From Acidimicrobiia bacterium (lineage in GTDB: Bacteria > Actinomycetota > Acidimicrobiia > Spongiisociales > JAHEDJ01): DNA of 64,000 nt. The stretch lies in the NCBI GenBank assembly GCA_029210695.1, contig JARGFH010000004.1:1-64000 (forward strand), read 5' to 3'. Made by a program: the position numbers and the translations under genes. Shown piece by piece: positions 1,674 to 63,161 of this stretch (the first letter of the stretch is position 1; each line of letters opens with the position of its first letter). The notes beneath the pieces are model-generated. The model was not told the origin of the DNA. It did not search any database and was given only the letters and a program-made list of their open reading frames with translations.

Positions 1674-2378
1674 ATGACTTCATCAGGAACACCAGGCCTC
1701 ACCGGCTGGGACTCGCCGTTTCCCCGTGGAGTCGGATTCGCCCAGGTGGACTTGGGTCACTTGAACATGGATGCCGTCGCCCACGACCCGATTGCCTCTC
1801 GTGAACTGAGCGCTCTCGGCGAGGGACCAACCGAGGCGAGACGCTTGGAGTTTGCAGCCGGGCGTGCGGCCGCCCGGCAAGCGCTGCGTGGTCTCGGTGT
1901 GGAAGAGACGCCTGTGCTGATCGGTGGTCGTCGGGAACCGATCTGGCCGACCGGAGCGATAGGGACGATCACGCACTCAGACGGGACGGCTCTGGCGGCT
2001 GTGGCCTGGCAGAAGCACTGGTCGGGGCTTGGCCTGGACATCGAGAGTCTCGATCGCTTCTTTCCCGACCTCATCACGATGATCACCTCGGCATCGGAAC
2101 GGGTCGGGTTGGAACCGCTGTTGAACAGCGCTCCCGAGCGCACGGCAGTAGCGGTCTTCGCTGCCAAAGAGGCCCTCTACAAGGCATTGTTCCCACGGGT
2201 TGGGAGGCTTTTCGGTTTCGACGCTGCATACGTTCGACCCGGTGCACATCCGAATCAGGTGACCCTCCAACTGCTCGACGATCTCGCAGCCGACGTTCGG
2301 GCAGGAACGGTTTACTCGGTCCAGACAATATGGCGCCAGCGCCTGGTGCTGGCTTCGCTGGCTATCGAGGCAGTGTGA
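1674..2378 (+). CDS. 4'-phosphopantetheinyl transferase (EntD-like)
   Basis: RRLEFAAGR, PIWP.G..GTITHS, GLDIE, FAAKEALYKA motifs; next to NRPS genes; start uncertain (1599 GTG possible). Confidence 0.9.
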   Translation: MTSSGTPGLTGWDSPFPRGVGFAQVDLGHLNMDAVAHDPIASRELSALGEGPTEARRLEFAAGRAAARQALRGLGVEETPVLIGGRREPIWPTGAIGTITHSDGTALAAVAWQKHWSGLGLDIESLDRFFPDLITMITSASERVGLEPLLNSAPERTAVAVFAAKEALYKALFPRVGRLFGFDAAYVRPGAHPNQVTLQLLDDLAADVRAGTVYSVQTIWRQRLVLASLAIEAV

Positions 2379-2404
2379 TGCTGCCGGATCGCTGGCGACC
2401 TACC

Positions 2405-4051
2405 TCAGCTCGATACGATGCGGCCGCCCTTGAGTTCGATGACTTCGTCAACCCCGCCGAGCACGGCCGGATCGTGGGTTATGAGTAGCACCGCAGGGCG
2501 TGGTTGAAGCGTGGCGATGTTACTGATGACGGCATGGAGAGCGTCACGGTCGAGGTGGTTCGTCGGCTCATCGAGGATCAGGATGCTTGGCCTGTGGATG
2601 ACGGCTCTCGCGATTGCGAGTCGTTGACGCTGACCACCCGAGAGAAAGACACCTTCATCACCGATGTCCGTGTCTAGTCCGTCCGGCAAGCTCTCAACGA
2701 ATGAGGCGTCCGCGACCTTGAGCGCCCGGTCGATATCGTCCCGATTCAGTCCGATACGACCATAAGTGATGTTGTCGACCACCGACCCGTGCAGGAGCAC
2801 CGTCTGCTGCGGGACCACACCCATCCTCCTGCGAAGCGAGATCATGTCAAGATCGGGATAGGGGATTGAGTCCGCCAAGAGCTGGCCTCGATCAGGGCGA
2901 TAGAACCCGAGTATGAGACTCACGAGCGTCGACTTCCCCGAGCCGTTCGGCCCCGTGATGGCGATGACGCTCCCTGGCTGCAGTTCGAGTGACACGCCTT
3001 CGAGCACGGGTTCCTCTCCGTATCCGAACGTGACATCCACCACTCGAAGGTGACCCGCGAATTGGATCTCGGTCGAGCCTTGATACGGTCGAGCATCCCC
3101 TTCTGTGAGTAATGCGTCGAGATGCGAGAGAGACGTTAAGCCTTCAATGACGGCGGGGACTCTCAGCGCTATTCCTCCAAGCGGGCCTCGCATCAGTGCG
3201 AACCCGGCATAGAACGAAATGAGATCCCCCAGCGTCAAGCTGCCCTGAGCCACGAAAATTCCGCCGACGATGAGGACGCTAGCTCCCGCGAGAGCCAGCA
3301 AAGTGGTCTGCGAAAGCGAATACGCCTTGTTCCACAAGGATTGCTGTACACCCGCTTCCTCCAATTCGCCCGCCCGCAGCGCGATCCGATCCATCTCCAT
3401 CTCTTCGGCTCCGTGGGTTCGGATCAAGTCCATGGTCCTGAGAATTCGTAGAACTTCACGACTGAAGTGTTCGAACATCCGGTGCTGATGCCGGACACGT
3501 TGTCGTAGGATCCGCCCCAACAGTCGACCCGTAAGCATGATGGCCGGGCCGAAGCCAAGCGTGATGGCCGCCAGAACTGGATTCATCTCGATCAGGACTG
3601 CGCCGATTCCCACAACGATCACGAACCCGGGAAGATAGGTATCAAAAACGGCCTTGGTACCGCGATCGATGCGCTCGGATTCCTGGACGATCTGATCATG
3701 GAGAACGGACGGTTCCTGTGATGTGACGAACCTCCGACTCACGAGGAACAGTTTCTCGACGGCATCCTGCCGAAGACGCTTGATAGCGTCGCGGACCACT
3801 GAAGCCGTGACATATCCGCCCCCTAATGAGAGCGCCGCGCCGAGGAGTGTCAAACCGAGGATCATGGCGCCGATCGTCAATAGCCGATCTATATCGCGAG
3901 CTGGTATCGCCTCGTCGATCGCGATCCTGACGAGTATGGGTATCGGAATCAGGGTGAGCGCGTTCAAGATCGAGAGGAGAACGCCTCCGAGAAGTCGACC
4001 TCGTGAGGAGCGATAGAGGCCGATGTAGCGCTTGAAAACTGGCCAACTCAT
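2405..4051 (-). CDS. ABC exporter, fused permease + ATPase
   Basis: N-terminal TM helices; GPNGSGKS, LSGGQRQR, ILDEPT; start overlaps the NRPS stop. Confidence 0.93.
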   Translation of the reverse strand: MSWPVFKRYIGLYRSSRGRLLGGVLLSILNALTLIPIPILVRIAIDEAIPARDIDRLLTIGAMILGLTLLGAALSLGGGYVTASVVRDAIKRLRQDAVEKLFLVSRRFVTSQEPSVLHDQIVQESERIDRGTKAVFDTYLPGFVIVVGIGAVLIEMNPVLAAITLGFGPAIMLTGRLLGRILRQRVRHQHRMFEHFSREVLRILRTMDLIRTHGAEEMEMDRIALRAGELEEAGVQQSLWNKAYSLSQTTLLALAGASVLIVGGIFVAQGSLTLGDLISFYAGFALMRGPLGGIALRVPAVIEGLTSLSHLDALLTEGDARPYQGSTEIQFAGHLRVVDVTFGYGEEPVLEGVSLELQPGSVIAITGPNGSGKSTLVSLILGFYRPDRGQLLADSIPYPDLDMISLRRRMGVVPQQTVLLHGSVVDNITYGRIGLNRDDIDRALKVADASFVESLPDGLDTDIGDEGVFLSGGQRQRLAIARAVIHRPSILILDEPTNHLDRDALHAVISNIATLQPRPAVLLITHDPAVLGGVDEVIELKGGRIVSS

Positions 4052-7000
4052 CGCAGCTCCGCCGTCTGAGCAGGCTCAGCGCGGAGTGCTGCCTGGATGT
4101 GCTTAGCCACCATCTGTGCATGCGGGGCACGCATCAATGATTGCTCGCCCCGATGGGTTCCCGGAACACCGACAACTTCGAGATTCGAGCCGGTTACCTC
4201 CCGCCAGGGAGTGAGGGCGGCGACCTTCGACGGATCGGTATTGTCGCCCGCCTGAATAAAGAGCACTCGTCCATCGTACGGTCCCGGCTTGTAGGTCGAA
4301 GCCGCCCTAGTCGCGGCACGGAACATCAGCCTCTCGACCAGCCGAGGGCTGAGAGGGCGACCGGTGACTCGCGCCATCACGGTTTTCGGTCCATGACGGA
4401 GGCGGCCGCCGAGTCGGCGAGCGTGAAGGGCCAGCTGCTTGCCAATCCGCCTTCGGTCGAGCGTTCCGTGGAGAAGACCCGACATTCGCTTGCTCACCGA
4501 GCTAGCCCGGCGTGCCCCGCCGGGCCGGAATCGGGCATCGATCAGGACGACGAGGTCCACGGGTTCTCCTTCGGAGCGGAGCCGCCTGGCGACCTCGAAC
4601 GCGATCAGACCCCCCAGGGAGTATCCGACGAGAACGTGGGGGCCGGTGCTACCTTCCGACTTCATCGCTGTGTGGCAGTGGACGGCCAGCGCGTCAATCG
4701 TTTTGAGCGGTGAGGACCTTCCGTCCAGGCCCACGGCCTCAATCCCGAGGATCGGGCGACCGGTCTTGAGGCTGCGGGCCATCAGTTCATACGTCATGAC
4801 ATTGCCTCCGGCGGGGGGCATGCAGACGATGGGACTGCCTTCGGTCCCATGCTTGATAGTGATGACGGGGCCGCCCGGCCGAGGCCCCTGCGCGCTGATG
4901 CGTTCCGTGAACGCGGCCAGCGTAGGTGCTTCAAACAAAACCGACAGGGGGAGGCGTCTGCCGTACTGCTTCTCTATCGCTGCCGTCAGTCGGATGGCCA
5001 GGAGCGAGTGTCCGCCGAGGTCGAAGAAGTTGGAGTCCGCTCCGATGTCTTGGACCTCGAGGGTCTGCTCCCACAGGCGGGCCATCCCTATCTGGGCGGC
5101 TCCCTGGGGCGGCTGGAAGGACCGCTGTGGAACTGTGGGCGAGGGGAGCGCTGCCTCATCCACTTTGCCGTTGGCCGTCAAGGGCAAGGCGTCGACGATG
5201 ACGACCGCCGACGGGATCATGAAGCCTGGTAGTAGCGGACCGAGATGGTCTATGGCCGTCTGTGACGTGATCTTCCCGACTACGTAGGCCACGAGTCGCG
5301 AGTCGGCTCCAGTCGACCGTACCGCGACGTGGGCTTGTTCGATGGCCGGGTGACTGCGGAGGTGGGCTTCTATTTCGCCCGGCTCGACTCGGAATCCGCG
5401 CAGTTTGACCTGTCGATCGATCCTTCCAAGGTACTCTATGTCGCCGTCGGGCCTGCGGCGCACGAGGTCTCCGGTTCGGTACACCCGTTGCCCTCCGAGG
5501 GTCACGAAGCGTTCGTTGGTGAGCTGCGGGTTCTTGCGATACCCGGCGGCGACGCCGAGCCCTCCGACAACCAACTCGCCGGGAGCACCGGCTGGAAGGG
5601 GGTTCATGTTCGCGTCTACCACGGTCGCCGTGGCCCCCGAGATCGGTGTGCCGATAGGGACGGTCCTGGCGCGACTTGGCACGTTCGTGACGAGTTTCCA
5701 CGTTGCAAAGGTGGTTGTTTCGGTCGGCCCGTAGACATTTACCAGCCTCCGCGGTGGCCCGGATTCGAGACACGAGCGCACGGCATCCGAGTCCGCGGCC
5801 TCGCCGCCGAACATGAGCGTGTCTAGCGATTCGAACGCGTCCGGCGCATGGCGTATTACGGCGTTGAACAGAGCGGTCGTCAGGAACATAACCGTGATAC
5901 CGCTTGCGCGGATTTCTCTTACAAGTGAATCCGGGGAGAGCAGGGTGGCACTGTCTATGACGTGGAGCGCCGCGCCGTTGAGAAGAGCCCCCCATATCTC
6001 GAACGTGGCTGCATCAAACCCTGTGTTGGAGGCGAATCCGATGACCGAATCGCTGGATAGGTCGACATAATTCGGGTCGCTGACGAGATTGACGATCGAT
6101 TGTTCTTCGATCTCGACGCCCTTCGGTGACCCGGTGGAACCCGAGGTATACATGATGTAGGCGATCCGGTCAGATGTTCCCGGGTCGGCCTCTCGCTGAA
6201 CTGCTCTGACCTCGATTCGTGGATCGTTGATGCCGTTGCCTTGGGACAGAATCGCCTTCAACCGGGCGTCCTGAGCGATCGTGTCGATTCTCGCCTGTGG
6301 ATAGGCGAGGTCGAGAGGAACGTAGACCGCTCCAGCGCGCAAGATCCCAACGATCGCCGCAACGATGCTTGATCCGCGCGCCATCTGTACGCCTACCGCG
6401 TCGCCGGGTTCGATGCCTGCAGCTTCCAAAGCGCTAGCGATCTGATGCGACGCCGCCGCGAGTTCGCCGAACGAATGGGGCTTCCTGCCATCCACTATGG
6501 CTGCCGACGACGGGGCGCGGTCGAACACCCGGTCTGCGAGGTCGATGAGTCGTGCTTTGGCGATAGATCTAGGCTCGGAAACTGGACGAGCAGGTTCGAG
6601 CTGAAGGGTGTCGATCCGTCGGTCGGTGTCCTCCCCTGTGGCTCGAAGCAGTTCTGTGTAGTGCTCGGCCATGGCAAGCACCGTTTCCTTGTCGAAGAGA
6701 TCGTTTCTGAACTCCATGAGGAAGCGAACACCATCGTCCCTCTTCGTGACATGGGTGCGAAGGTCGTACTTCGCCGGATGGGAGCCGAGGTCGACGCCGA
6801 GTGGAACGTTGGAGAGGTGCGGCAACGACAACGCCGACGATTGCCCAGATCTCATGTCGAACATCGTCTGAAAGATGGGCGTCCGGGACGTGTCTCTTGG
6901 TGCGTCGAGGTGCTCCACCACCGCATCGAAGGGGACGTGTCGATGCGCCAGAGCTTCGAGCATCGCCGAGCGGATACGATTGAGCAGGTCCCGGATGGTC

Positions 7001-10000
7001 AACTCTGGCCGGATTCGCACCCGGATCGGGAGTGGGTTGACGAAAAAGCCGACAACGTTCTCCAACTCGAGGTTGTTGCGTTCGGTACTCGGGATCCCGA
7101 TGACGAAGTCGTCCTGTCGGGTGAATCTGTGAATGAGCAGTGCATAGATGGCCAGGTAGGCCATGAACGGCGTCATTCCCTCGTCGCGGGCCACACGCTC
7201 GACCTCTCCGGAGACCTCCGCATCGATTTCCAATCGAACCACTCCGGCCTCTCCATCACTCTGCGGTGGACGGATCCGGTCGGTGGGCAGGTCCAGATTC
7301 GACGTGGAACCATCGAGCGTCTTCAGCCACCACTTCAAATCGGGGTCGGCGGCCGTTAGTTGCTGTTCCTGGCGCCGCGCAAAATCCGCGTAGGTCGTTG
7401 CTATGTCCGGGAGATCGGCAGAGCGACCTTCGACCCACGCCGTGTAGAGCGTCTCCAAATCGCCTCGAATGATCTGCATCGAATCTGCGTCCGTGGCGAT
7501 GTGGTGCGCCACGATCGAAAGAATGTGGTCGTCATCAGCAATCCGGAAGAGTTTGGTGCGAATCGGGTGGTCATTCGCCAGGTCGAACGGTGCCAGCGCC
7601 TCGTGACGAAGCGCGGCGGAGAGGTCCAGGGAGGTATCGACCTCGACGAGCTCGATGGCGTGCGGCCGTGGGCTATCGACGATCTGGAATGGGACACCAT
7701 TCTCTTCGCGTATTCTCGTTCTAAACACGGGATGCCGCGCAACGATGGTATCCATTGCATGCTGCACGGCCCGAAGTGAAAGCTCCCCGTACAGGCGCAC
7801 TCGCCAGGGGGTGTGGTAGTTGCCGGCTTCGGGTGTCAACCGGTGGAGGAACCACAACCGGCGTTGAGCGAACGACAGGGGAGATCGTTCATTCTGGTTG
7901 GTACGCGACTCGTGTTCGGCTGCCGGCTCGGCGCTTCGATAGCGCTCGAGCTCGCGCACGAACGCTCGTGGGGTTGGCGCTTCGAAGATGGTGCTGATGG
8001 GCAACCCCACATCCCATTCGGCATCGACTCGCGAGAACGCCCTGATCGCGGTCAACGAATGGCCGCCTAATTCGAAGAAGTTGTCATCGGGGCCGACGTC
8101 GATACCGATCACCTCGCCCCATATGTCGCACATGCGGGCGAGTAGGGCCGGATCGACCACGTCGGAACCCGGTGCCGGCTGAGGTGCCTCCGTCGCCAGG
8201 TTTGTCGGTCCTTCGACCTCACGAGGTCGGGTCTGGATCGGCGCATCGGGATTCGACACCAGGCGGTCGGCGAGTCGATCGAATTCATCGAGGAGTCCGA
8301 CGATGGTCGACTCGTCAAAGAGGTCGGTGTTGTAAACCAAGTTCCCGTTTAGCGATGTCTCGTCGTTTCCCAGGTACATCGTGAAGTCGAACTTCGAAGC
8401 CTCGGAGACCCTCTCGATGGATGCGGCTTCGACTCCGACGAAGGCCGGATCGGCGGCGAATGCCGAGACGCCGAACTGAAAGAAGACCTGGAACAGCGGC
8501 GTTCGATCGGCATGACGGGCCGGTGCAACGGCGCGGACCACTTGCTCGAATGGCACCTCGCGGTGATCGTAGGCGGCCAGCAGCGAGGATCGCACGGATC
8601 GGAGGACTTCGCGAAAGCTTGATCCCGGCTGAAGCGTGTGCCGGATGGCCAGCGTGTTGACCAAGAATCCGATCAGGCTCTGGGTGTCGCCGGAGGCCCG
8701 ATCGGCGCTTGGGATGCCAACGACGACATCATCGCTTCCTGAGCGCTCGTGAAGGTTCGAGATGAACAGGGCAAGCCCGACCATGAATGCCGTCGCGGAC
8801 TCCTCCCGGGCCAGAGCCAGGAATTGGTTCCTGTCGGTCTGGGTGAGTACGAACCTGTGATTGCGCCCGGTGAATGTCATGATGTCGGGCCGCGGCCGGT
8901 CCGGGTTGAGGTCGATGGCGTCCGGAGCACCAACCAGTTGACTCTGCCAGAACGCCAGGTCCCGATCGTAGGTTCCGTCGTCCAACGCCTGGCGCTGCGC
9001 TATCGCGTAGTCGGCGTATTGGATTGGCATCGAGTCGAGATCTGGTTCGGATCCCTCACGGAGTGCGTTGTACGCCGAGGAGAGTTCGCCGAACAAGATC
9101 GGCAACGACCACCCATCGCTGGCGATATGGTGCACAGCGCTGATCAGAATGTGTTCATCCGGCGACATCCGCAGGATCGTGGTCCGCCAAACCGGTTCGC
9201 CGGCCAGATCGAACGAGTACGACGCAGCCTCCTGGGTGATTCGTTCGGCCTCGCCTTGTCTATCTCCGTCCCAATCGCTGAGATCGATCACCGCCAACTG
9301 AACCGGGCCAGGATCGTCCACGATCTGGATAGGGTCCCCATCGTTTGCCACGTAGCGAGTGCGGAGGATCTCGTGGCGGGCCGCCACGACTTCGCAGGCC
9401 CGCCGGAGTATCTCGATGTCGAGCCGACCGCGGAGACGGTGAACCTTCGTGATGGTGTAGTTGGCACTCCCCGGGTACATGCGGTCCAGAACCCAGAGCC
9501 GCTCCTGTGCCGAAGATAGAGGGGCTTGCTTGACGCGAGGAGTGACCGCTGGCGGCACACCAGTCCTGGCCTCGAGCAGGGCGCGTTTGGCGGGTGACAA
9601 CCGGGCGATCCGACCGTCGGTGTCCCCTGGTGTGAGCCCCTGGTTCGGCGACCGCTGAGAGAAGCGCCGTTCCAATAAGGCTTGCTTGGCCGGTGAAAGC
9701 GCAGCTACCCGATCTTGGGTATCGGTGCTGCGATCGGTGGCCAATGCAGCGGACTTGTCGACGATCTCCGCGATCTCCGCCCGGTCGATTTTGCCGTTCG
9801 CATTGATCGGCATCGCGTCGACCACAACATATCGTGCTGGGATCGCCACCCGGGGGACCTTCGAGCGGAGATGCTCCCGCAGAGACGTGGTCGTCGGTGT
9901 CTCGGATTCTGTGACTATTGCGGCATCGAGACGGGTGATCCGACCGCCATGATGGACCGGGACTACTGCGGCGCGCTTGACGCCCGGGTGTTCTTCCAGG

Positions 10001-11280
10001 GTCGCCTCGATCTCCTCCGGCTCGACTCTTACGCCGAGGATCTTGATCTGAAGATCGGTCCTTCCCGACACGACGAGAGTCCCATCGTCCCGTCTCGAGC
10101 CGACGTCCCCGGTTCGATAGACGATGTCGTCGGGATCGTCCGTCAGCGGATTGGAGACGAAGCTCTGGTCGTCGTCGACGTTCACGTATCCGAGAGTGCC
10201 GAAGTCGGTCCGGATGACGATCTCACCGTTCTCAGCCTCCTGGCCGTGCTCGTCGAGGATGAGGATGTCGGTTCCCGGAAGGGGAGTTCCGACGGGAATG
10301 GGTTGGCCGGGCACAACGTCGCCTATTACATGGAAGGTGCGAATGAACGTGGTTTCGGTTGGGCCGTAGAAGTTCACGAGCGCGCCGGAGGGCTTCACGC
10401 GGGCTCGCCAGTCCATTACCAGGCGGGGGGTCACGATTTCGCCCGAGAAGAAGACCCATCGAAGGCTCGACGCGGATGCTTCCACACCCTCTAGCCACAG
10501 CTCAGCATGGGAAGGAGTGACATTCGTGATGGTTATCCGCTGCCGTCGGATCCAGGCTATGGCATCGTCTGGGTCCATGGGATCGGGGGCAACCACGATT
10601 CGCGCTCCACTGACCAGCGGCACGAAGATCTCTCGCATTACGGCATCGAATCCGAGATTGCGGCTCAGGGCTACACGATCGGCTTCGGCAATCTCGAACG
10701 TCTCCGCCATCCACTGCATGAACTGGTTGAAGCCTCCCCAAGAGCCGAGGATGCCCTTCGGTTTTCCGGTCGATCCTGAGGTGAAGAAGATGTACGCCGG
10801 ATCAACTGCGGAGCGGGCGATGACATCGAGTGAGTTTTTCTCGAACTCCTCTTCCGGCCAGGCGGGAATTCGAATCAGCGAAATCCCGTCGGCTTCGATG
10901 GCGGGTCCTTCGCCGATCTGGACGAGCAAGGTCGCCTCGGAGTCCTTGATCATGAGTCGCCGTCGTTCGGTAGGGGTGGACCAGTCGAGCGGGACAACGA
11001 CTCCGCCGTGAGACAGCGTCGCGAGCATGGCAGCTATTGCGGCGGGGCCGCGAGGACCGACGATCGCTACCCGGGTATTGGGAGACACTCCATGCTTGGC
11101 CAGGGAATCGGCGAGGTGTCCCGCCCAATCGAGAAGTTGTCGGTTGGTCATGGCCCGCCCGGAAGCTTCGATCGCAACCTGGTCCGGGTGTTGATGGGCG
11201 CGTTCAACGAACGTTTCGATGGGGGAGAGAACGTTTCCATTCTGCGCTTGGCCGCGAGAGCGGAGTCTGCTGCCCATCAC
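4048..11280 (-). CDS. Non-ribosomal peptide synthetase, A-C-T-C-A-T-TE
   Basis: A: FTSGSTGKPKG and YTSGSTGSPKG; C: HHIASDG and HHIATDA; T: two FFxLGGHSL; TE: GYSLG; no T motif between the first A and first C. Confidence 0.93.
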   Translation of the reverse strand: MMGSRLRSRGQAQNGNVLSPIETFVERAHQHPDQVAIEASGRAMTNRQLLDWAGHLADSLAKHGVSPNTRVAIVGPRGPAAIAAMLATLSHGGVVVPLDWSTPTERRRLMIKDSEATLLVQIGEGPAIEADGISLIRIPAWPEEEFEKNSLDVIARSAVDPAYIFFTSGSTGKPKGILGSWGGFNQFMQWMAETFEIAEADRVALSRNLGFDAVMREIFVPLVSGARIVVAPDPMDPDDAIAWIRRQRITITNVTPSHAELWLEGVEASASSLRWVFFSGEIVTPRLVMDWRARVKPSGALVNFYGPTETTFIRTFHVIGDVVPGQPIPVGTPLPGTDILILDEHGQEAENGEIVIRTDFGTLGYVNVDDDQSFVSNPLTDDPDDIVYRTGDVGSRRDDGTLVVSGRTDLQIKILGVRVEPEEIEATLEEHPGVKRAAVVPVHHGGRITRLDAAIVTESETPTTTSLREHLRSKVPRVAIPARYVVVDAMPINANGKIDRAEIAEIVDKSAALATDRSTDTQDRVAALSPAKQALLERRFSQRSPNQGLTPGDTDGRIARLSPAKRALLEARTGVPPAVTPRVKQAPLSSAQERLWVLDRMYPGSANYTITKVHRLRGRLDIEILRRACEVVAARHEILRTRYVANDGDPIQIVDDPGPVQLAVIDLSDWDGDRQGEAERITQEAASYSFDLAGEPVWRTTILRMSPDEHILISAVHHIASDGWSLPILFGELSSAYNALREGSEPDLDSMPIQYADYAIAQRQALDDGTYDRDLAFWQSQLVGAPDAIDLNPDRPRPDIMTFTGRNHRFVLTQTDRNQFLALAREESATAFMVGLALFISNLHERSGSDDVVVGIPSADRASGDTQSLIGFLVNTLAIRHTLQPGSSFREVLRSVRSSLLAAYDHREVPFEQVVRAVAPARHADRTPLFQVFFQFGVSAFAADPAFVGVEAASIERVSEASKFDFTMYLGNDETSLNGNLVYNTDLFDESTIVGLLDEFDRLADRLVSNPDAPIQTRPREVEGPTNLATEAPQPAPGSDVVDPALLARMCDIWGEVIGIDVGPDDNFFELGGHSLTAIRAFSRVDAEWDVGLPISTIFEAPTPRAFVRELERYRSAEPAAEHESRTNQNERSPLSFAQRRLWFLHRLTPEAGNYHTPWRVRLYGELSLRAVQHAMDTIVARHPVFRTRIREENGVPFQIVDSPRPHAIELVEVDTSLDLSAALRHEALAPFDLANDHPIRTKLFRIADDDHILSIVAHHIATDADSMQIIRGDLETLYTAWVEGRSADLPDIATTYADFARRQEQQLTAADPDLKWWLKTLDGSTSNLDLPTDRIRPPQSDGEAGVVRLEIDAEVSGEVERVARDEGMTPFMAYLAIYALLIHRFTRQDDFVIGIPSTERNNLELENVVGFFVNPLPIRVRIRPELTIRDLLNRIRSAMLEALAHRHVPFDAVVEHLDAPRDTSRTPIFQTMFDMRSGQSSALSLPHLSNVPLGVDLGSHPAKYDLRTHVTKRDDGVRFLMEFRNDLFDKETVLAMAEHYTELLRATGEDTDRRIDTLQLEPARPVSEPRSIAKARLIDLADRVFDRAPSSAAIVDGRKPHSFGELAAASHQIASALEAAGIEPGDAVGVQMARGSSIVAAIVGILRAGAVYVPLDLAYPQARIDTIAQDARLKAILSQGNGINDPRIEVRAVQREADPGTSDRIAYIMYTSGSTGSPKGVEIEEQSIVNLVSDPNYVDLSSDSVIGFASNTGFDAATFEIWGALLNGAALHVIDSATLLSPDSLVREIRASGITVMFLTTALFNAVIRHAPDAFESLDTLMFGGEAADSDAVRSCLESGPPRRLVNVYGPTETTTFATWKLVTNVPSRARTVPIGTPISGATATVVDANMNPLPAGAPGELVVGGLGVAAGYRKNPQLTNERFVTLGGQRVYRTGDLVRRRPDGDIEYLGRIDRQVKLRGFRVEPGEIEAHLRSHPAIEQAHVAVRSTGADSRLVAYVVGKITSQTAIDHLGPLLPGFMIPSAVVIVDALPLTANGKVDEAALPSPTVPQRSFQPPQGAAQIGMARLWEQTLEVQDIGADSNFFDLGGHSLLAIRLTAAIEKQYGRRLPLSVLFEAPTLAAFTERISAQGPRPGGPVITIKHGTEGSPIVCMPPAGGNVMTYELMARSLKTGRPILGIEAVGLDGRSSPLKTIDALAVHCHTAMKSEGSTGPHVLVGYSLGGLIAFEVARRLRSEGEPVDLVVLIDARFRPGGARRASSVSKRMSGLLHGTLDRRRIGKQLALHARRLGGRLRHGPKTVMARVTGRPLSPRLVERLMFRAATRAASTYKPGPYDGRVLFIQAGDNTDPSKVAALTPWREVTGSNLEVVGVPGTHRGEQSLMRAPHAQMVAKHIQAALRAEPAQTAELR

Positions 11281-14200
11281 CTGCCCCCGGCGTCGAGTCG
11301 TCGGAGCATTTCCTCGGCTTCCTCGTCTGTCATCTGTTCGAGGGCTGTCAAGAAACCGTCCATGTCCGGGTCAAAACCAGCCATTGAATCTGCGTGTTGC
11401 TCCGAGGTCCGAACAATCGGGGGCGAGACCACGCTGCCACTCGGGATGTCGGCTCGAGCTGTCGCCAGGACCATGTCCGAGAATGCTCCAAATGTCGGGT
11501 ATTCGAATAGATCTGTGAGTTCTACGGACACACCGAGACGCGCCTTGATTCGCGAGATCACTTTGATGGCAAGCAGTGAATGACCACCGAGATTGAAGAA
11601 ATCATCGGTTGCGTCAACGTCATCAGCCCCGAGAACTTCGCACCAGATTCGGGCCACCTCGCCGCGATCCGGAACCGTGGAGGTTGGGGCGACGATGTCG
11701 GCACGATCTCGCGGTGCCAATATCGTCGCGGCCGGTTCGAGAGAGCCACGGAGGAGAGCGTTCTTGTCCACCTTGCCGCTGATGGTCATCGGGATCTCCG
11801 AGACTGCAGTCAGGCTGGTCGGCACCATGAACTTCGGTACCCCGAGCGACCGTCGGACGGCTTGGAGGTCAATTGGCTGATGGTCGGTAAACGTGACGAA
11901 GCCGCGCAGTTCCATGTCGCCGTTCGGGGCCTCAGTTGCCAGGACGACGGCGGCATCGATTCCCGCCACCTTCCGAAGCGCCGTCTCGACCTCAGCCGGT
12001 TCAACTCGAAACCCGCGGATCTTGACCTGGCGATCGACCCTGCCGATCACCTCAAGCGTTCCATTTGGCAGCCAACGACCGATATCGCCCGAGCGGTACA
12101 TGCGGGTTCCGGCCAGTCGAGAGAACGGGTCTGGCGAGAATCGCTCTGCCGTGAGTTCCGGTGCGTTGAGATATCCACGAGCCACCAGTGGCCCGCTGAT
12201 ATACAGTTCGCCGTGAATTCCGATCGGAGCCAGGTTTCCGAGTCCATCGATGACGTGGACCCGGGAAGGAGCTCTGGGCGGGCCGATCGAGATCCATTCG
12301 TGTTCGGTTGGCGGGGGTTGGGTGAGGTCATTTGCCGTAACCCAGACCGTCGCCTCGGTTGGTCCATACGAATCGACGGTTTGGACGCTTCCTCCGGTGA
12401 GGGCGTGCCACAGATTGACGATGTCTGCCCGCACCTGTTCCCCGCCGAAGGCGACAAGTCGGAGCGTGTCCGGCAGCTTCGACCCGGTCGCGGCGAGCTC
12501 CTCGACCAGCACATGGAAGAAGCCTGCCGAGACGCGCAGGTGGCTGATCCGGTGGACCGTCAACCAGTCCACGAGGCGAGGAATCGAGTAGAACGATGCC
12601 TCGTCTCGGACGACGACCGTCGCGCCGCCGGCGAACGCCGCGTGCAGGCTGTTCATGTGGGCATCGAACGAGAGGCTGTGGAACCAGACGATCCGATCGC
12701 CCGGACTGAGGGGCTCGAAGTCGGCTGTTTGCTTGAGGAACCAAGCCACGTTGCCTTGCTCGACCATTACCCCCTTGGGAGGACCGGTGGATCCGGAGGT
12801 GTACAACACATAGGCGAGATCCTCCGGTTTTGGTCTTCCGGGGAACGGTCGCGCCTTGTCGTCTAGCAGTTGTGAAATCCCTCTAACCTCGAGTCCGTCA
12901 TCTCGTGTCCACGGTTCCAGGGTGGTCAGCACCAACGCTGGTTTTGTCTGTTCTATGACCGTGTTCATCCACTCGCTGGTCAGCTCTGAGTCGATCGGGA
13001 CGTAGGCCACTCCTGTCCGCAAGGCCCCGAACATCGCGGCTGCGGCATCGATCCCGCGATCGGCGCTGAGGATCACCACGTCTTCTGGCCCCAAGTTGCG
13101 ATCCATCAACGACCAGGCGATAGAGTCCACCATTCGGTCGAACTCGGCATATGTGACGTGACGGGTCCCCTCTTCCATGGCAACGAAATCGGGCCATTGG
13201 GTGGCTGCTGAACGCAGGCACTCGGATGCGAGTGGCGGTGATGGGAGGTAGGCGGCTTCGTCGGGATTGAATTCTTCAAGAGTGGTCCGCCGTTCCGCCT
13301 CGCCCATCAGCTCAATGTCGAGGATGGTCGGATCCGCCGTCCCGGCCACCGACTCGAGCAGGCGGACGTAGTGTTCGGACCAACGTTCAATTGTCGACCG
13401 ACGGAACCTTCCCGGGTGATAACCGAATGTGATCGCCGCTCCGGTCGGAGCGCGCGTCGCCCGGACGGTGAGATGGTTGGTAGCGCCGACCCGCGGCTCT
13501 ACGACTTCGACCTCAAGATGGGTCGATTGCCGGATGGCCTGGTGGAAGTCGCGCATCTGGAAATGCACGCGATGCAGGGGGATCCTGTCGGTCGACCATG
13601 GCCTGACCGCACCGAACACCTGACCGTACGGTACGGACGAATTATCGAGCGCCTCAAGCGTCGTTCGTCGGGTGTTCTCGATTACCTCCGAGAACCGCGG
13701 ATTATCTTGCAGGCTGGTTCGAATGGGCACCAGGTTGATGAAGCAACCGATCAGGTTTTCGGTTTCCGATCGCGGTCGGCCGGGAGTGGGGACCCCCACC
13801 ACTACGTCGTCCACCCCGGCGTGTCGAGCGATGAGAACCTGTAAGGCAGCGAGCAGAACCATGAAGAGTGTCGCACCATGACCTCTGGCGAGATCCTCAA
13901 GGCCGGACATCACCCCCGGTGGGATCTGGACGTGGACTGGATTCGCGACCGAATCTGGATCCATTTCTCTATCGAGCGGCAGCTTTAGGTCTGGCGGCAA
14001 ATCAGCCAACTGCCGTCGCCAGTACTGGAGCTGCTTCTCGAACGAATCCTCGGTGGTCGTTGCCCGCTCCCAGCGGGCGTGGTCGGCATAGTCGATTTTG
14101 AGGTCCGGCAATCCTGCCGGAACAGATCCCTCAAGTGCTGCGTCGTAATGGGCGATGAGCTCGTCGACGAAAAGCGGCTCCGACCACCCGTCGAACACGA

Positions 14201-14681
14201 TGTGGTGCATGGCAAACGCCAGAAGATGCTCGTTCGGTGACACCCGAATCAGCAGGGGGATGAACGGGACCTCGTTCTCGAGATCAAAGGATCGAGACGT
14301 GTGATCGTCGGCGAGTGACCTGGCGGCCGCCAATGGGTCCTTCTCTCCGGACACATCGCGTATCTCCATGGCCGGCCGCCGATTGCCGGATAGTTGCACC
14401 GGCTCGGCTCCTTGCAGTGGGAACGTAGAGACCAGGACGGGATGTCGACAAACGACGGAATCGATAGCCCCGCTGAGTGCTGCGCTATCGAGGTTGCCCG
14501 ACAACCTCAGTAGGAGTGGTCGGTTGTTCGCCCCCTCCTCGAGGTGTGAGGTCAGCCACAAGCTCTGCTGCACATGCGTCAGTGGGGCCACGGACGAGTC
14601 GACGTGCCGCACCGGAGTCGACCGTCCGAGCCGTTCGGCGATCAGCGCATCGATTGCCGAACGGCGGGCGGCTTCAGACAT
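11277..14681 (-). CDS. Non-ribosomal peptide synthetase, C-A-T
   Basis: HHIVFDG, YTSGSTGPPKG, YGPTE, FFNLGGHSL; acidic C-terminal tail LEQMTDEEAEEML; ATG 14681 overlaps the end of the upstream gene. Confidence 0.93.
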   Translation of the reverse strand: MSEAARRSAIDALIAERLGRSTPVRHVDSSVAPLTHVQQSLWLTSHLEEGANNRPLLLRLSGNLDSAALSGAIDSVVCRHPVLVSTFPLQGAEPVQLSGNRRPAMEIRDVSGEKDPLAAARSLADDHTSRSFDLENEVPFIPLLIRVSPNEHLLAFAMHHIVFDGWSEPLFVDELIAHYDAALEGSVPAGLPDLKIDYADHARWERATTTEDSFEKQLQYWRRQLADLPPDLKLPLDREMDPDSVANPVHVQIPPGVMSGLEDLARGHGATLFMVLLAALQVLIARHAGVDDVVVGVPTPGRPRSETENLIGCFINLVPIRTSLQDNPRFSEVIENTRRTTLEALDNSSVPYGQVFGAVRPWSTDRIPLHRVHFQMRDFHQAIRQSTHLEVEVVEPRVGATNHLTVRATRAPTGAAITFGYHPGRFRRSTIERWSEHYVRLLESVAGTADPTILDIELMGEAERRTTLEEFNPDEAAYLPSPPLASECLRSAATQWPDFVAMEEGTRHVTYAEFDRMVDSIAWSLMDRNLGPEDVVILSADRGIDAAAAMFGALRTGVAYVPIDSELTSEWMNTVIEQTKPALVLTTLEPWTRDDGLEVRGISQLLDDKARPFPGRPKPEDLAYVLYTSGSTGPPKGVMVEQGNVAWFLKQTADFEPLSPGDRIVWFHSLSFDAHMNSLHAAFAGGATVVVRDEASFYSIPRLVDWLTVHRISHLRVSAGFFHVLVEELAATGSKLPDTLRLVAFGGEQVRADIVNLWHALTGGSVQTVDSYGPTEATVWVTANDLTQPPPTEHEWISIGPPRAPSRVHVIDGLGNLAPIGIHGELYISGPLVARGYLNAPELTAERFSPDPFSRLAGTRMYRSGDIGRWLPNGTLEVIGRVDRQVKIRGFRVEPAEVETALRKVAGIDAAVVLATEAPNGDMELRGFVTFTDHQPIDLQAVRRSLGVPKFMVPTSLTAVSEIPMTISGKVDKNALLRGSLEPAATILAPRDRADIVAPTSTVPDRGEVARIWCEVLGADDVDATDDFFNLGGHSLLAIKVISRIKARLGVSVELTDLFEYPTFGAFSDMVLATARADIPSGSVVSPPIVRTSEQHADSMAGFDPDMDGFLTALEQMTDEEAEEMLRRLDAGGR

Positions 14682-16449
14682 CGGAGATGAGCAGTTCGTC
14701 GATGAGCTCGGCCTGGGCGGCGACCGTCGGTCGATCGAAGAACGCAACGATCGACGGATCTATCTGGAGACGTTCACGAACCCGAGTGAGCAGTCTGATG
14801 GCGAGCATCGAGTCCCCGCCGAGGTCTAGGAACCGGTCCTCGACCCCGATCGAATCCCGGTCGAGAACCTCCGACCAGATCTCGGCGACAACTTCCTCAG
14901 TGCGCGTCCTCGGCGCGACCCATTCGGCGCCGGCGCCGGCAACATCGTCTAGGTCGGAGAGCTCGAGCCGTTCGGCCATGCCGATGCGCTGTAGCTTGCC
15001 GGTTGGGCCCAGGGGTAGTGAGTCCATGAAGATGATGCGGCGCGGCACCTTCGCCGAGGACAGGCGCGCTTCGACCCACTTGCGCAACGAGAGCTCATCG
15101 ATGGCTGCGCCGGCTTCTAGGACGACTGCTGCGGCCGGCTGCTCTCCGAGACGGTGATCAGGGACGCCGAACGCCAGCGCCTGCCGCACAAGTTCGTGTT
15201 CGAGCAGGACCTCGTCGATTTCCCTCGGCGCGATGGTTTCGCCGGCTCGATTGATCATCTCTTTGGACCGACCGGTCAGGATCAGATATCCGTCCTCGTC
15301 GAATCGACCGAGATCGCCAGTCCGGAACCAGCCATCGATGAACGCATCCTCGGCTGGGGTCAGGTACCCCGCCGTCACATTGGGTCCCCGCACTACGACT
15401 TCGCCGATTTCGTGACGTCGCTGGTGTACCTCACCGGCCGTCAGAATGGACACCTCAGGACCTGCCGCAATACCAACCGATCCCGATTTGCGGCGCGCCG
15501 GCGGTAGCGGGTTGCATGACATCTGATGGGCGGCTTCGGTCATTCCGTATGCCTCAATTACCGGAGCGCCGAATGCCGACTCCAAGCCCTTCATCACTGC
15601 TGGCGGCAGCGATGCCGAGGACGAGCGAATGAAGCGAAGCGTCGGTAGTTCCATTTCTGGGGCAGATCGGACCCGTTCGACGATGGATTGATGGATCGTA
15701 GGGACGGCCGTGTACCAGGTTGGGGAGGTTGCGGTCATCCAGTCAAAGAACTGTGTGGCGATATACCCGGGTGTCGCGACAATCGATCCGCCCGAGTACA
15801 GAGGGGCAAGTAGGGCCGCTACGAGGCCGTGAATGTGAAACAGCGGCATCACATTCAATACCCGATCGTCGGGGGTGAGTTGCAGGGTCGTTGTCACATG
15901 AGCAGCGGACGCTGTCAGATTGGCGTGCGTGAGCGGAACCATCTTGGGTCGCGATGTCGTTCCCGAGGTGTGGAGAATGAGTGCAACATCGTCAGGGGCC
16001 GGCGATTGACTGGCCCCAACCGTGGTCGGAGGAGTGTCGATGATTGCCACGGAACCAGCCTTCAAACCAGGGCCGATCCGAAGAATTGGCACCCCGGCGT
16101 CTCTAGACGCTTCGACAAGATGCTCCGGAGCGTCTTCTGGGACGATCATCAGGCGGGGACGCAGATCTTCGAGGTAGAACGACAACTCCGCAGCCTTGAA
16201 CGCTGGATTGAGTGGGGCTGCAATGCCGGCGGCTGCCGACGCAAGGAATACAGTCACGGCTTCTGGCCCGTTGTTCACGAGTGACGCCACGACGTCGGTT
16301 CGGGAGACGCCAAGTCGGCTGACCGTGGAGGCGAGGTGGTCGACTGCGCGCTCAAGGTGATATCCAGAGGACGGATCCCGGGTTGGAGCCAGAAGAACGT
16401 CAGATGTCGACGAGCCCAATGCACGCACAATCTCGACAGTTGTTCTCAT
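14674..16449 (-). CDS. Acyl-AMP/CoA ligase (oxalate-CoA ligase-like) fused to a carrier protein; NRPS starter
   Basis: LHTSGTTSRPK, PLFHIHGL, WYTAVPTIHQ, RFIRSSSASL, EAYGMTEAAHQM.NPLPP; C-terminal FLDLGGDSM carrier motif; ORF extension to 17103 overlaps an opposite gene and was discarded. Confidence 0.85.
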   Translation of the reverse strand: MRTTVEIVRALGSSTSDVLLAPTRDPSSGYHLERAVDHLASTVSRLGVSRTDVVASLVNNGPEAVTVFLASAAAGIAAPLNPAFKAAELSFYLEDLRPRLMIVPEDAPEHLVEASRDAGVPILRIGPGLKAGSVAIIDTPPTTVGASQSPAPDDVALILHTSGTTSRPKMVPLTHANLTASAAHVTTTLQLTPDDRVLNVMPLFHIHGLVAALLAPLYSGGSIVATPGYIATQFFDWMTATSPTWYTAVPTIHQSIVERVRSAPEMELPTLRFIRSSSASLPPAVMKGLESAFGAPVIEAYGMTEAAHQMSCNPLPPARRKSGSVGIAAGPEVSILTAGEVHQRRHEIGEVVVRGPNVTAGYLTPAEDAFIDGWFRTGDLGRFDEDGYLILTGRSKEMINRAGETIAPREIDEVLLEHELVRQALAFGVPDHRLGEQPAAAVVLEAGAAIDELSLRKWVEARLSSAKVPRRIIFMDSLPLGPTGKLQRIGMAERLELSDLDDVAGAGAEWVAPRTRTEEVVAEIWSEVLDRDSIGVEDRFLDLGGDSMLAIRLLTRVRERLQIDPSIVAFFDRPTVAAQAELIDELLISDV

Positions 16450-16860
16450 GTTCCCGTGCCCCAGTATTTGCCCCAGGGTCAGGTTAGTTAGGCCAACGCC
16501 TGAGCTCAATGGGTTGCCAGCATTTTCAGGCAAGTGGGCGGCGACGATTTTCCCAGGAGATGGCCAGCCGTTTGAGCTGGTGGTGGCCGACTTGCCACGC
16601 ACGATGGCGAAGGGTTCGGGGTTCTTGTGACGGAGGAAGCCATCGCCAAGCCTCGTATCACCGAAATGCGACGCCTGAGACACCGGTATTGCCCTGCCGA
16701 CGAGATTGGCGCGCAAGCGGTCGGCCACACCACATACCCCTGGGCGCCTCACCTTCCGGCCGGCACAACCCGGCCCGCAATGCCGGGGCCGAGCTGTGAG
16801 GCGCCACCCGCAGAACTCAAAGTCGGCACCATGAAGGCCTCTTTCAGGTAGCCTGCCCCC

Positions 16861-18447
16861 ATGGACCTGGCCCTCTTGATCGTGGCCTTCGGGTTCGGGT
16901 TCGCCGCTAGCGTCGTCCGCCTCCCGCCACTCGTGGGTTACCTCGCGGCCGGGTTCCTCCTTCACGGCTTTGGCTACGAGCCGACCGCCAGCCTCGATGT
17001 CGTCGCAGAACTCGGCGTCCTGCTGCTGCTGTTCGGCATCGGGCTCAAGCTGCGGCTGCGGACATTGGGACGCCCGGTCGTGTGGGCGGGCGCCACCATC
17101 CACTTAGTGCTGACAACGGCGCTGCTCGGCGCTCTGTTCCTGGGTCTCGGTGCACTGGGCTTGCCACTCGCTTCGGGGCTCTCCCCCGCAGAGGCGGTGC
17201 TTGTCGGGTTCGCGTTCTCGTTCTCCAGCACGGTCTTCGCGGTGAAGGCTCTGGAGGAGCGCAACGAGGCGGCGTCCCTTCAGGGCCGGATAGCCGTCGG
17301 TGTTCTCATCGTTCAGGACATCTTCGCGGTCGCATTTCTGACCCTGGCCGTCGACGCACGCCCGTCGATCTGGGCGGTACCGGTCGTGGTGGCTGTCGTG
17401 GCCGCCCGACCCATCTACGGCTGGCTACTCGACCGAAGCGGTCACGGGGAGTTGCTGATCCTGCTGGGTTTGGCGCTGGCGATTGGTGTCGGTGCCGAGT
17501 CCTTCGATCAGGTCGGCCTGAAGCCCGATCTCGGCGCCCTGGTGATCGGACTCACGCTGGCCAACCACCGGCGTGCTCCGGAACTGGCCGACACGCTGCT
17601 CGGCTTCAAAGACATACTGCTGATCGGCTTCTTCCTTTCCATCGGCCTCGAGGGCGCCCCAGGGGCGGCAGAGTTGGTTGTCGCCTTCGTCGCGTTGCTC
17701 GTCCTGCCCTTGAAGGTGAGCGGGTTCGTGTGGCTGGTATCGCGCTTCCGCTTCCGTGCCCGTACGGCATGGCATTCATCGATCACCTTGGCGACTTACA
17801 GTGAGTTCGGGCTCATCGTCGCCGTCATCGGCGCGGACCAGGAGCTGATCGATCCGCGTTGGACATCCGCAATTGCCGTCGCCGCCGCAGCCTCCTTCGC
17901 GCTTGCGGCCCCTCTCAATACGGCCAGGTACACCGTCTACGCCCGCTGGTCGGGTCGCCTGTCACCGCTCCAACGGGAACCGATCCAAGCCGACGACGCG
18001 CTAATCGAGCCCCTGGATGCACAGATCATCGTCTTCGGCATGGGGCGGGTCGGAGCAGGGGCCTACGACGAGTTGATTCTGCGTCGCCCCGAATCGGTGC
18101 TCGGCGTCGATCGTCGTGATGACATAGTGGCCGCCAACACGGCTGCAGGGCGGAACATCATTCGAGGCGACGCCCTCGACTTGGAGTTCTGGGATCGGCT
18201 GCGCCTCCACCCGGGCGTCGAACTGGTAGTCCTCGCCATGGGAGATCAAGCCGCCAACCTCGAGGCTGTGCGTAGGGTGCAGGACTTCCTGCCCACCGTG
18301 CGAACCGCCGCCTCCGCGACATATCCCGACGAGGTCGGCGAACTCGAGGCCGCCGGCGTCGATGTAGCCCGCAACCTATTCGACGAAGCCGGTCAGGGCC
18401 TTGCCGACGACGCTTGCGATCTTCTCGACGGGAAGGGCCGGCAGTAG
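16861..18447 (+). CDS. CPA2-family cation:proton antiporter with TrkA-N domain (Kef-like)
   Basis: LPPLVGYLAAG, FSSTV, LIVQD, SEF; C-terminal VFGMGRVG Rossmann motif; TAGCCT 6 nt before ATG. Confidence 0.9.
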   Translation: MDLALLIVAFGFGFAASVVRLPPLVGYLAAGFLLHGFGYEPTASLDVVAELGVLLLLFGIGLKLRLRTLGRPVVWAGATIHLVLTTALLGALFLGLGALGLPLASGLSPAEAVLVGFAFSFSSTVFAVKALEERNEAASLQGRIAVGVLIVQDIFAVAFLTLAVDARPSIWAVPVVVAVVAARPIYGWLLDRSGHGELLILLGLALAIGVGAESFDQVGLKPDLGALVIGLTLANHRRAPELADTLLGFKDILLIGFFLSIGLEGAPGAAELVVAFVALLVLPLKVSGFVWLVSRFRFRARTAWHSSITLATYSEFGLIVAVIGADQELIDPRWTSAIAVAAAASFALAAPLNTARYTVYARWSGRLSPLQREPIQADDALIEPLDAQIIVFGMGRVGAGAYDELILRRPESVLGVDRRDDIVAANTAAGRNIIRGDALDLEFWDRLRLHPGVELVVLAMGDQAANLEAVRRVQDFLPTVRTAASATYPDEVGELEAAGVDVARNLFDEAGQGLADDACDLLDGKGRQ

Positions 18448-20736: not shown

Positions 20737-21828
20737 TCAGCGGGGCAACCACATCGATACGGTGGTGCCCGCCGGGCCGCTCTCGAGGATTTCCATATCA
20801 CCACCATGCGCTCTCACCAGACCTCGGGCGATCGAAAGCCCCAGACCACTTCCCGGGGAGTCCTCGGACTTCACGAAGCGGCCGAAGACCTCCTCGAGTT
20901 GGGTGGGGTCGATGCCCGGGCCGGAGTCGACCACCTCGGTCGTGATTCGATCGTCCGCAACCTCGACCGTGATCATCAACCGACCCCCTCCGGGCATGGC
21001 CCGGATCGAGTTCACGACCAGGTTGGCGAGTGCTTGGCGGATTCGCACCGGGTCCATCTCTATCTCCGGCACGGTGGTGGGAGCATTCACCGAGATTTCC
21101 ACGGCCGAATTCGAGGCGATGGACTGGTACGAACTCGCCACCTCCTCGACCACCTTCATCAGGTCGGCATGCTCGGTTTGCAGCGGCAACTTCCCCGCCT
21201 CGGACAGGGTGAGGACCCGCAGATCTTCGATCAATCGCTCCAACACCTCGACCTCGTCGAGCAACGACTCCATGTGTGCGGGGCCACCGTCGTGGACCCC
21301 ATCGATCACAGCCTCGATCTCACCCCGGATGACCGCCAGCGGGGTCCTCAGTTCGTGACCCAGGTCGGACATCAACCGCCGGCGCTGTTCATCTGCCTCT
21401 TCGAGTCGCTCGGCCATCGAGTTGAACGAAGATCCGACCGCCCGCATCCCGGCGGAGGATCGCTCATCTACCCGGGCGCTGTAGTCACCGTCCGCTAATC
21501 GTCCGGCTGCCCCGATGAGATCCCGCACCGGCCGCCAGGTGCGCCGAACCAACGCACGTAGAAACCAGCCTCCCACCACCAGCACGAACAGCGTGGCTGC
21601 GACGATGCCGGGCCGCCCGGCCGACGCCACCCCCGCCACCGCAGTCGCGATGAGCGCCCCGAACAGCGCCGCTACCAGTGCCAGGAAGATCACAAACGCG
21701 AGTACACCTTTGAAGATCCGGCGCCCGAACCCTGCCCAATCCTGCTGACCCCGCCCGGCCCGCGGGGGCCAGTGCTCGCCTTCCGGCCACCACTGCGGCC
21801 CGCCGCGAAACTGCCTACCCGTCGGCAT
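20737..21828 (-). CDS. HAMP sensor histidine kinase
   Basis: Two TM helices, HAMP, HELRTPL, NLVVNS, DSGPG, GSGLGL. Confidence 0.93.
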   Translation of the reverse strand: MPTGRQFRGGPQWWPEGEHWPPRAGRGQQDWAGFGRRIFKGVLAFVIFLALVAALFGALIATAVAGVASAGRPGIVAATLFVLVVGGWFLRALVRRTWRPVRDLIGAAGRLADGDYSARVDERSSAGMRAVGSSFNSMAERLEEADEQRRRLMSDLGHELRTPLAVIRGEIEAVIDGVHDGGPAHMESLLDEVEVLERLIEDLRVLTLSEAGKLPLQTEHADLMKVVEEVASSYQSIASNSAVEISVNAPTTVPEIEMDPVRIRQALANLVVNSIRAMPGGGRLMITVEVADDRITTEVVDSGPGIDPTQLEEVFGRFVKSEDSPGSGLGLSIARGLVRAHGGDMEILESGPAGTTVSMWLPR

Positions 21829-26064: not shown

Positions 26065-26363
26065 CGTGACCCAGCCAAGCGCATCGCCGACGCCGGGACG
26101 ATGAGCCAAAGGTCCTCATGATCGCGCACAAAGACCACAAGTGGCCCCAGCAGTATGCCCCTGATCATGGAGGCCGTGTTTACCCGCGTCTTCAACGATA
26201 TGGCTATCGACGCGCCGGGCTTGACCCCCGGGAGATCTCGCGGAGGCCGTCCTCAGCGCGGTGGGGATCGTCGGGTAGCCCGATCGTTCCGCCAACGGAG
26301 GGATCCCGGATCGCAGTAACCCGTTCGACCGACCGTCCACCCGAGGGCGGAGGCCGCCTCCGA

Positions 26364-26923: not shown

Positions 26924-26966
26924 AGCACGTCGATGAGTGCCGACACCCGCACCTACGATGACTTCC

Positions 26967-37181: not shown

Positions 37182-37231
37182 AACGTCAAGTGCAACTCTA
37201 AACGTTAAGTGCTATACTCAGCGTTATGCAG
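37182..37231 (+). promoter_or_regulatory. Divergent promoter region with 19-bp-period repeats and leaderless -10
   Basis: AACGTCAAGTGC (37182), AACGTTAAGTGC (37201), AGCGTTATGC (37220); TATACT 7 nt before the Rrf2 ATG. Confidence 0.55.
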
Positions 37232-38608: not shown

Positions 38609-42222
<3,614 letters not shown>

Positions 42223-63152: not shown

Positions 63153-63161
63153 GTCATCCCC

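Follow-up and report, generated by a model that had tools for sequence, protein, structure and literature searches.

Positions 1674–16449 of the DNA studied here (contig JARGFH010000004.1 of the Acidimicrobiia assembly GCA_029210695.1, positions 1 to 64,000; this 64,000-nt stretch is called the window, and all coordinates are positions in it) carry four overlapping minus-strand genes and one convergent plus-strand gene, as read from the map of open reading frames (ORFs) and their translations. Judged from its sequence, the block probably encodes an oxalate-primed nonribosomal peptide synthetase (NRPS) that makes an exported N-oxalyl tripeptide. It would be an NRPS with unstudied loading chemistry, whose starter type is apparently found in many bacteria. 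An oxalate-ligase-like starter priming a three-module NRPS had been proposed in the initial annotation of this DNA; PDB scores, the substrate pocket and the gene neighbourhoods of relatives lend support to that proposal.

The starter ligase and its predicted substrate

The first gene of the operon encodes a carboxylate ligase fused to a carrier (T) domain. In a phmmer search against all PDB sequences, the ligase matched AtAAE3 best (5ie0; 382 bits, E 3.4e-113, query residues 33–493), followed by LsOCS (6qjz; 371 bits) and yeast Pcs60 (8aff; 332 bits); the next classes were malonyl-CoA synthetase (210 bits) and FadD13 (196 bits). By these scores the ligase is nearest to the solved oxalate-CoA ligases, and malonyl, fatty-acyl and aryl ligases follow far behind. 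All five starter motifs quoted in the initial annotation are present in the translation, and the likeness to oxalate-CoA ligases claimed there is borne out by the PDB scores and by the retention of two residues, Ser289 and His319.

The oxalate pocket of AAE3 consists of Val215, His216, Cys288, Ser289, Ala313, Met314, His319 and Lys500, and Ser289 and His319 are reported as conserved only among oxalyl-CoA synthetases (PMC8905533). Alignment with AAE3 places Ile, His, Ser, Ser, Gly, Met, His and Lys at these positions (pocket signature HIHSSGMHK). Five of the eight residues are identical (Ser289, His319, Lys500, His216 and Met314); the oxalate-contacting Ser289, His319 and Lys500 (AAE3 numbering) are all present in the ligase.

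The known oxalate-CoA ligases AAE3 (PDB 5IE0-5IE3), LsOCS (6QJZ) and Pcs60 (8AFF) have the same fold, the same core motifs and the same Ser289/His319/Lys500. They are free-standing and produce oxalyl-CoA for oxalate degradation or for synthesis of oxalyldiaminopropionic acid (ODAP), whereas the domain described here is carrier-fused and heads an NRPS. It is not a free-standing enzyme of the kind that releases a CoA thioester; because a PP-binding domain is fused to it and its gene heads an NRPS operon, we call it an oxalate-ligase-type domain and not an oxalate-CoA ligase.

Several observations weigh against an oxalate-primed line. Three pocket-lining residues differ from AAE3, all conservatively (V215I, C288S and A313G). 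LsOCS, with catalytic efficiencies of 1.1e5 for oxalate, 1.8e3 for glyoxylate and 12 M−1 s−1 for malonate, also takes glyoxylate, at 61-fold lower efficiency (PMC8905533). In the literature searched, the assayed members of the family all make CoA thioesters; none of them loads a carrier and none is bacterial. The top NCBIfam model bears the name ‘FadD7 family fatty acid-CoA ligase’ (394 bits, under its cut-off of 650). No oxalate-producing or oxalate-related gene was found in the island or in the rest of the window. Among the NRPS domains, the signatures of the first two adenylation (A) domains match no substrate that we could name, module 2 has the unusual order A-C-T (C, condensation), and the motif of the third C domain, HHIATDA, has Ala where C1 (HHIVFDG) and C2 (HHIASDG) have Gly.

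The differences in the pocket, the side activities of LsOCS and the absence of an assayed bacterial or carrier-fused member from the literature searched would also fit the same line with another small acid loaded by the ligase (glyoxylate, oxamate, malonate, pyruvate or similar), so that the peptide would bear another C2–C3 cap. We regard this as unlikely, given that both residues reported as peculiar to oxalyl-CoA synthetases are kept, that malonyl-CoA synthetases score 210 bits against 382 and that the neighbourhoods of relatives (see below) point to oxalyl thioesters.

Ligase-carrier starters are typical of lipopeptide NRPSs, and both leading NCBIfam models carry fatty-acid names, the second being a long-chain-fatty-acid-CoA ligase (318 bits, cut-off 476). 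A lipopeptide line, with a fatty-acyl ligase loading a fatty acid onto the carrier, is nevertheless highly improbable. Both scores lie under the curated cut-offs, the first so far under that we treat FadD7 as a name only; solved fatty-acyl ligases reach at most 196 bits (FadD13), about half of the oxalate-ligase score; and the small polar pocket is conserved. Fatty acyl-AMP ligases carry a large insertion in the N-terminal domain; the alignment with AAE3 over residues 33–493 is nearly gapless, with short gaps only. Lacking this insertion and not being nearest to fatty-acyl ligases, the domain does not look like a fatty acyl-AMP ligase of the lipopeptide type. The N-terminal module of PvdL (PDB 9LCP; 125 bits) is likewise a ligase-carrier of the ANL superfamily (acyl-CoA synthetases, NRPS adenylation domains and luciferases) that primes the first C domain with a non-amino acid. 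Lipopeptide and siderophore loading modules of the PvdL type load fatty acids; the ligase of the island differs in belonging to the oxalate-ligase family and in its small polar pocket.

Ligase-carrier starters in other bacteria

A search for long proteins with the ligase as query gave 2183 matches at E<=1e-60, of which the best 120 were examined. Most of these 120 were NRPSs of 1.6–2.9 kaa that contain C, A and T domains and in some cases a thioesterase (TE). Ser289 and His319 were kept in 111 of them, and ligase-T was N-terminal in 116, which identifies it as a genuine loading module. The full order ligase-T-C-A-T-TE occurs in a single ORF at loci L030 and L075 and is split over two genes at L033. 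In a tree of 145 C domains (a sample with 79% post-ligase C domains, from relatives that are not independent), C1 fell in a clade of 47 with support 0.96, the other 46 members of which all directly follow such a ligase-T; C2 grouped with elongation C domains.

Stand-alone ligase-T or ligase-T-TE genes without a nearby NRPS exist at L014, L025, L046, L079 and L080. One could therefore imagine that ligase-T is not the loading module here, that it serves another pathway and that C1 takes an acyl-CoA from primary metabolism. We consider this the least credible of the alternatives, with hardly any probability left to it: an 8-nt overlap ties the ligase gene to gene 2, each of the three copies of the island (see below) has kept the ligase together with its NRPS, and in most of the best 120 long matches it is fused to C-A-T in one polypeptide. 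Moreover, C1, C2 and C3 are the only C domains in the 3.9-Mb genome, so that the line is its sole NRPS.

A second search, for proteins of similar length, gave at least 8000 matches; PP-binding was present in 118 of the best 120, which had 49–83% identity and came from many phyla. A scan of species genomes yielded 80 loci, about 14 of them carrier-fused and the rest free-standing (roughly 46–53% identity, mostly Proteobacteria). When 205 fused and free ligases were aligned, the pocket string HIHSSGMHK was found in 185/205, and Ser289 with His319 in 204/205. Fused and free forms were intermixed in the tree of these 205 domains (9 parsimony changes). As this tree fails to separate the two forms, a single fusion event is not claimed.

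The gene neighbourhoods of these relatives point to oxalate chemistry. Free-standing ligases with this pocket adjoin a gene of the PanE/ApbA family in 8/17 loci examined, in a scan of nearest neighbours that covered 62 of 129 ORFs, and also at L092. PanE2 of Methylobacterium extorquens is described as an oxalyl-CoA reductase (PMC8411744; also PMC12686821); among the PanE/ApbA-family neighbours, PanE2 orthologues were not told apart from ketopantoate reductases. At the carrier-fused locus L032, the next gene encodes a thiamine pyrophosphate (TPP) enzyme whose top NCBIfam model is oxalyl-CoA decarboxylase (342 bits, cut-off 557), with the acetolactate synthase model a close second (336 bits). 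At L074, also carrier-fused, a gene of the phosphoenolpyruvate (PEP)-mutase/isocitrate-lyase family lies directly upstream of the ligase; of five relatives' genomes checked for this family, only L074 has it adjacent to the ligase.

Some of these loci are worth recording in their own right. Pairs of a free AAE3-like ligase gene and a PanE/ApbA-family gene (L015, L026, L027, L037, L045, L062, L063, L086 and L092) suggest that many Proteobacteria and Terriglobia could convert oxalate to glyoxylate, by way of oxalyl-CoA, with the products of two genes. In an Acidimicrobiia metagenome-assembled genome (MAG; L014:7050-11701), a ligase-T gene follows a DegT/DnrJ-type aminotransferase gene and a glycosyltransferase-like gene, with no NRPS, a context that hints at oxalylation of an amino sugar. 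Four Acidobacteriota loci (L025:9938-12655, L046:1513-4149, L079:9962-12481 and L080:6965-9640) encode an oxalate-type ligase-T-TE and have neither a C nor an A domain in the vicinity; their role might be acyl transfer to another acceptor or a proofreading cycle.

In a full-text literature search, conducted largely outside subscription journals, we found no oxalate-primed NRPS and no bacterial route to N-oxalylglycine. The initial annotation knew of no characterised cluster with the layout of the island; this stands as far as an oxalyl-primed NRPS in the literature searched is concerned, but not for the ligase-carrier starter itself, which is widespread. The nearest published logic found is that of Fum10/Fum14 in fumonisin biosynthesis, where an acyl-CoA-synthetase-type enzyme activates tricarballylate and a carrier-condensation NRPS transfers it (PMC7711896). 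There, as in the island, a small carboxylic acid is activated by an acyl-CoA-synthetase-type enzyme for an NRPS with a condensation domain; the fungal system differs in its separate proteins, in the ester formed on a polyketide and in the acid, tricarballylate. By its CDD naming, Fum10 may belong to the AAE3 subfamily.

Some relatives have a simpler layout. The first module behind the ligase could be read in 94 long proteins; its A signature starts with DILQ in 13/94 and with DI[LVIWAM]Q in 22/94 (for example, DILQLGLIWK in P0166 and DILQLGCIWK in L030). We presume the DILQ type to be that of glycine. Many of these proteins are single-module, TE-terminated enzymes. Ligase-T-C-A-T-TE with a glycine-like A signature was seen in a Bryobacterales MAG (L030:9917-15598), in P0166, in P0217 and in others. 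If the starter is oxalate, such proteins would be N-oxalylglycine synthetases.

A broader reading, which we put forward tentatively and hold to be somewhat doubtful, is that the AAE3-type ligase-carrier marks a large unstudied class of oxalyl-primed NRPSs from many phyla. Of the simplest members of this class (single proteins of ~1,850-1,950 aa, ligase-T-C-A-T-TE), the many with a glycine-like A signature would be dedicated N-oxalylglycine synthetases, and the island would be a peptide-extended version. Known NRPS lines start from an amino acid, an aryl acid or a fatty acid, or from one of a few keto and hydroxy acids. If real, an oxalyl cap supplied by a recruited oxalate-ligase domain would be a new NRPS priming chemistry. 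N-oxalyl amino acids mimic 2-oxoglutarate, and N-oxalylglycine is the classic inhibitor of 2-oxoglutarate oxygenases; the products of the class could for this reason be natural inhibitors of 2-oxoglutarate-dependent enzymes. The tripeptide of the island would then be an exported antimetabolite, or a carrier form of an N-oxalyl amino acid.

Uncultured Acidimicrobiia, Acidobacteriota, Gemmatimonadota and others are rich in the ligase-carrier class, and assay of a single 15-kb, five-gene island with its own phosphopantetheinyl transferase (PPTase) and exporter could annotate thousands of genes. The island stands out in being complete with these two genes, in the A-C-T order of module 2 and in two unmatched specificity signatures, and it offers a convenient test case for heterologous expression.

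Architecture of the line and its predicted product

The features of the block are as follows (Pfam E-values in brackets).

14674–16449, minus strand: starter gene, 591 aa, AAE3/Pcs60-like carboxylate ligase (aa 1–~500) plus carrier (AMP-binding 8.4e-69, AMP-binding_C 4e-15, PP-binding 3e-14)
14701–14892, minus strand: starter carrier domain, aa 520–583, Ser in LGGDSM
11277–14681, minus strand: gene 2, NRPS module 1 (C-A-T) with an acidic C-terminal tail (Condensation 5.2e-77, AMP-binding 1.9e-70, PP-binding 8.3e-18)
13287–14591, minus strand: C1
~11748–13214, minus strand: A1
~11469–11657, minus strand: T1
4048–11280, minus strand: gene 3, 2410 aa, NRPS modules 2 and 3 and release (A-C-T-C-A-T-TE; Condensation twice, AMP-binding twice, PP-binding twice, Thioesterase 9.5e-23)
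~9760–11220, minus strand: A2, followed by a linker
8230–9528, minus strand: C2, followed by T2
6598–7887, minus strand: C3
~5131–6525, minus strand: A3
~4897–5079, minus strand: T3
~4081–4833, minus strand: TE (GYSLGG)
2405–4051, minus strand: gene 4, half-size ATP-binding cassette (ABC) exporter, transmembrane domain plus ATPase (ABC_membrane 8.6e-25, ABC_tran 2.9e-32)
1674–2378, plus strand: Sfp/EntD-type 4′-phosphopantetheinyl transferase, convergent with the operon (4PPT_N 4.5e-20, ACPS 1e-11)
16450–16860: intergenic region between the ligase gene and a divergent Na+/H+ exchanger gene, presumably the operon promoter region

In total, Pfam finds four adenylating domains, four carriers, three C domains and one TE. 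An RBS-like (ribosome-binding site) GGGAA precedes the ATG of the starter gene at 16449. The ATG of gene 2 (14681) lies upstream of the ligase stop codon (14674–14676), giving the overlap of 8 nt, and the next two junctions are a GTGA overlap at 11277–11280 and an ATGA overlap at 4048–4051. ORF map, overlaps and Pfam domains together agree with the four coupled genes, convergent PPTase, domain string and domain counts given earlier for this DNA.

The three C domains all carry HHxxxD and the four carriers all carry GGxS, and the TE has GYSLGG; motifs A3, A5, A7, A8 and A10 were found in all four adenylating domains. The block is a modular type I NRPS, with C, A, T and TE domains that carry their catalytic motifs and are collinear. 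The product of 1674–2378, having both 4PPT_N and ACPS domains, is an Sfp-type PPTase; it matches the NCBIfam Npt, PptT and EntD models under their cut-offs. For gene 4, the nearest NCBIfam models are MsbA/CydD-type exporters, all under cut-off. An Rfam scan of the window matched no family.

Gene 3 opens with an A domain (aa 21–507), after which come a 77-aa linker that has no carrier motif and then C (aa 585–1017); the order A-C-T-C-A-T-TE is therefore correct. VibF, the vibriobactin synthetase, also has an A domain upstream of its C-T pair; it shares this placement with module 2 and differs in its pathway and in its heterocyclization domains. The A2-C2 linker (9529–9759, aa 508–584 of gene 3) contains a duplicated short motif, LSPAKQALLE / LSPAKRALLE, which may have a docking or hinge function connected with the uncommon A-C-T order.

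The ten specificity positions of each A domain were read from MAFFT alignments, with the columns anchored on the assumed specificity positions of GrsA. Several of the signatures returned by the method look like the canonical ones for Gly, Ser, Val, Asp, Asn, Gln and Ala, which gives some confidence in the alignment columns. The signatures obtained were DANRAGSVWK for A1, DARNFSFFIK for A2 and DAFFMGVTFK for A3, and the strings are near-identical in the two orthologous islands. A3 resembles branched-chain (Val/Ile) signatures. The best PDB matches of the A1 core were ApnA A1 and CmnG. Arg at pocket position 278 of A1 and 239 of A2 only hints at acidic or anionic substrates. Strings like that of A2 occur in other ligase-T NRPSs (DARHFSFLIK at L032 and DVRHFALMVK at L074).

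We suggest the following course of synthesis. The PPTase would convert the four carriers to the holo form. The AAE3-type ligase would adenylate oxalate and thioesterify its own fused carrier instead of CoA. C1 would transfer oxalyl onto the amino group of residue 1, loaded on T1 by A1; C2 would add residue 2, with T2 loaded by A2 from its place upstream of C2; and C3 would add a Val/Ile-like residue 3. Release by the TE would most simply be hydrolytic, giving a linear N-oxalyl tripeptide acid that the ABC half-transporter would export. Gene 2 ends in an acidic tail and gene 3 begins with a basic N-terminus; the two may act as docking elements. The product is most likely an N-oxalyl tripeptide whose last residue is Val/Ile-like. 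N-oxalylglycine itself was considered as the product and ruled out, as the signature of the first amino-acid module is not glycine-like.

Distribution and surroundings of the island

Forty relatives were compared, including the unpublished genomes G010 and G021 (distant matches only). A ligase-T orthologue was found in only one of the 40, genome G037, from the same order and another family (80% identity); G036 has a 48% identical form of the ligase without the carrier part. In six genomes of the same genus, ANL enzymes are at most 31% identical and the island is present in 0/6. G037 holds the whole block in the same gene order with 73–88% protein identity. The similarity begins exactly at the ATG of the PPTase gene (1674) and ends at the start of the ligase gene; the flanks are unrelated. 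A third copy of the block lies on a contig of an uncultured Acidimicrobiia (L013), cut at both ends. With exact limits of similarity, unrelated flanks and recurrence, the five genes behave as one transferable unit, and the best explanation of the block appears to be a self-contained, horizontally mobile five-gene NRPS island.

This patchy distribution, together with a genome (97.85% complete) in which no MbtH gene was found and with a look-up that listed no RNA or DNA sequencing run for 11000–16900, might indicate an acquired island that is decaying or silent and has no product. We judge that improbable: all reading frames are open, all core motifs are intact, and the conservation of the block in G037 with the same architecture argues for purifying selection.

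The island has as neighbours the divergent Na+/H+ exchanger-TrkA_N gene, a 5′-nucleotidase gene and two-component systems. Neither the block nor its flanks (16 flanking ORFs scanned) contain a tailoring enzyme; for the block itself, the initial annotation had noted this. Linked metal-uptake genes (binding protein, permease or receptor) were found neither among the 16 flanking ORFs nor among 26 further ORFs of the window. The block does not have the linked uptake genes of a siderophore or metallophore cluster, and so nothing supports a metallophore. The genome has two matches to the PEP-mutase/isocitrate-lyase family, both outside the island; since the family was found in 11/14 control genomes, they are uninformative on oxalate supply.

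Elsewhere in the window, a DUF6390 gene (25261–26109, minus strand; Pfam 1.6e-93) stands amid ORFs that match no family and is flanked by two OmpR-type two-component systems at 20737–22495 and 26937–28768. At 37226–42222 (plus strand), successive genes encode an Rrf2 regulator, a cytochrome c and a molybdopterin oxidoreductase of 1205 aa, and a xanthine-dehydrogenase-type molybdoenzyme is encoded at 60304–63761.

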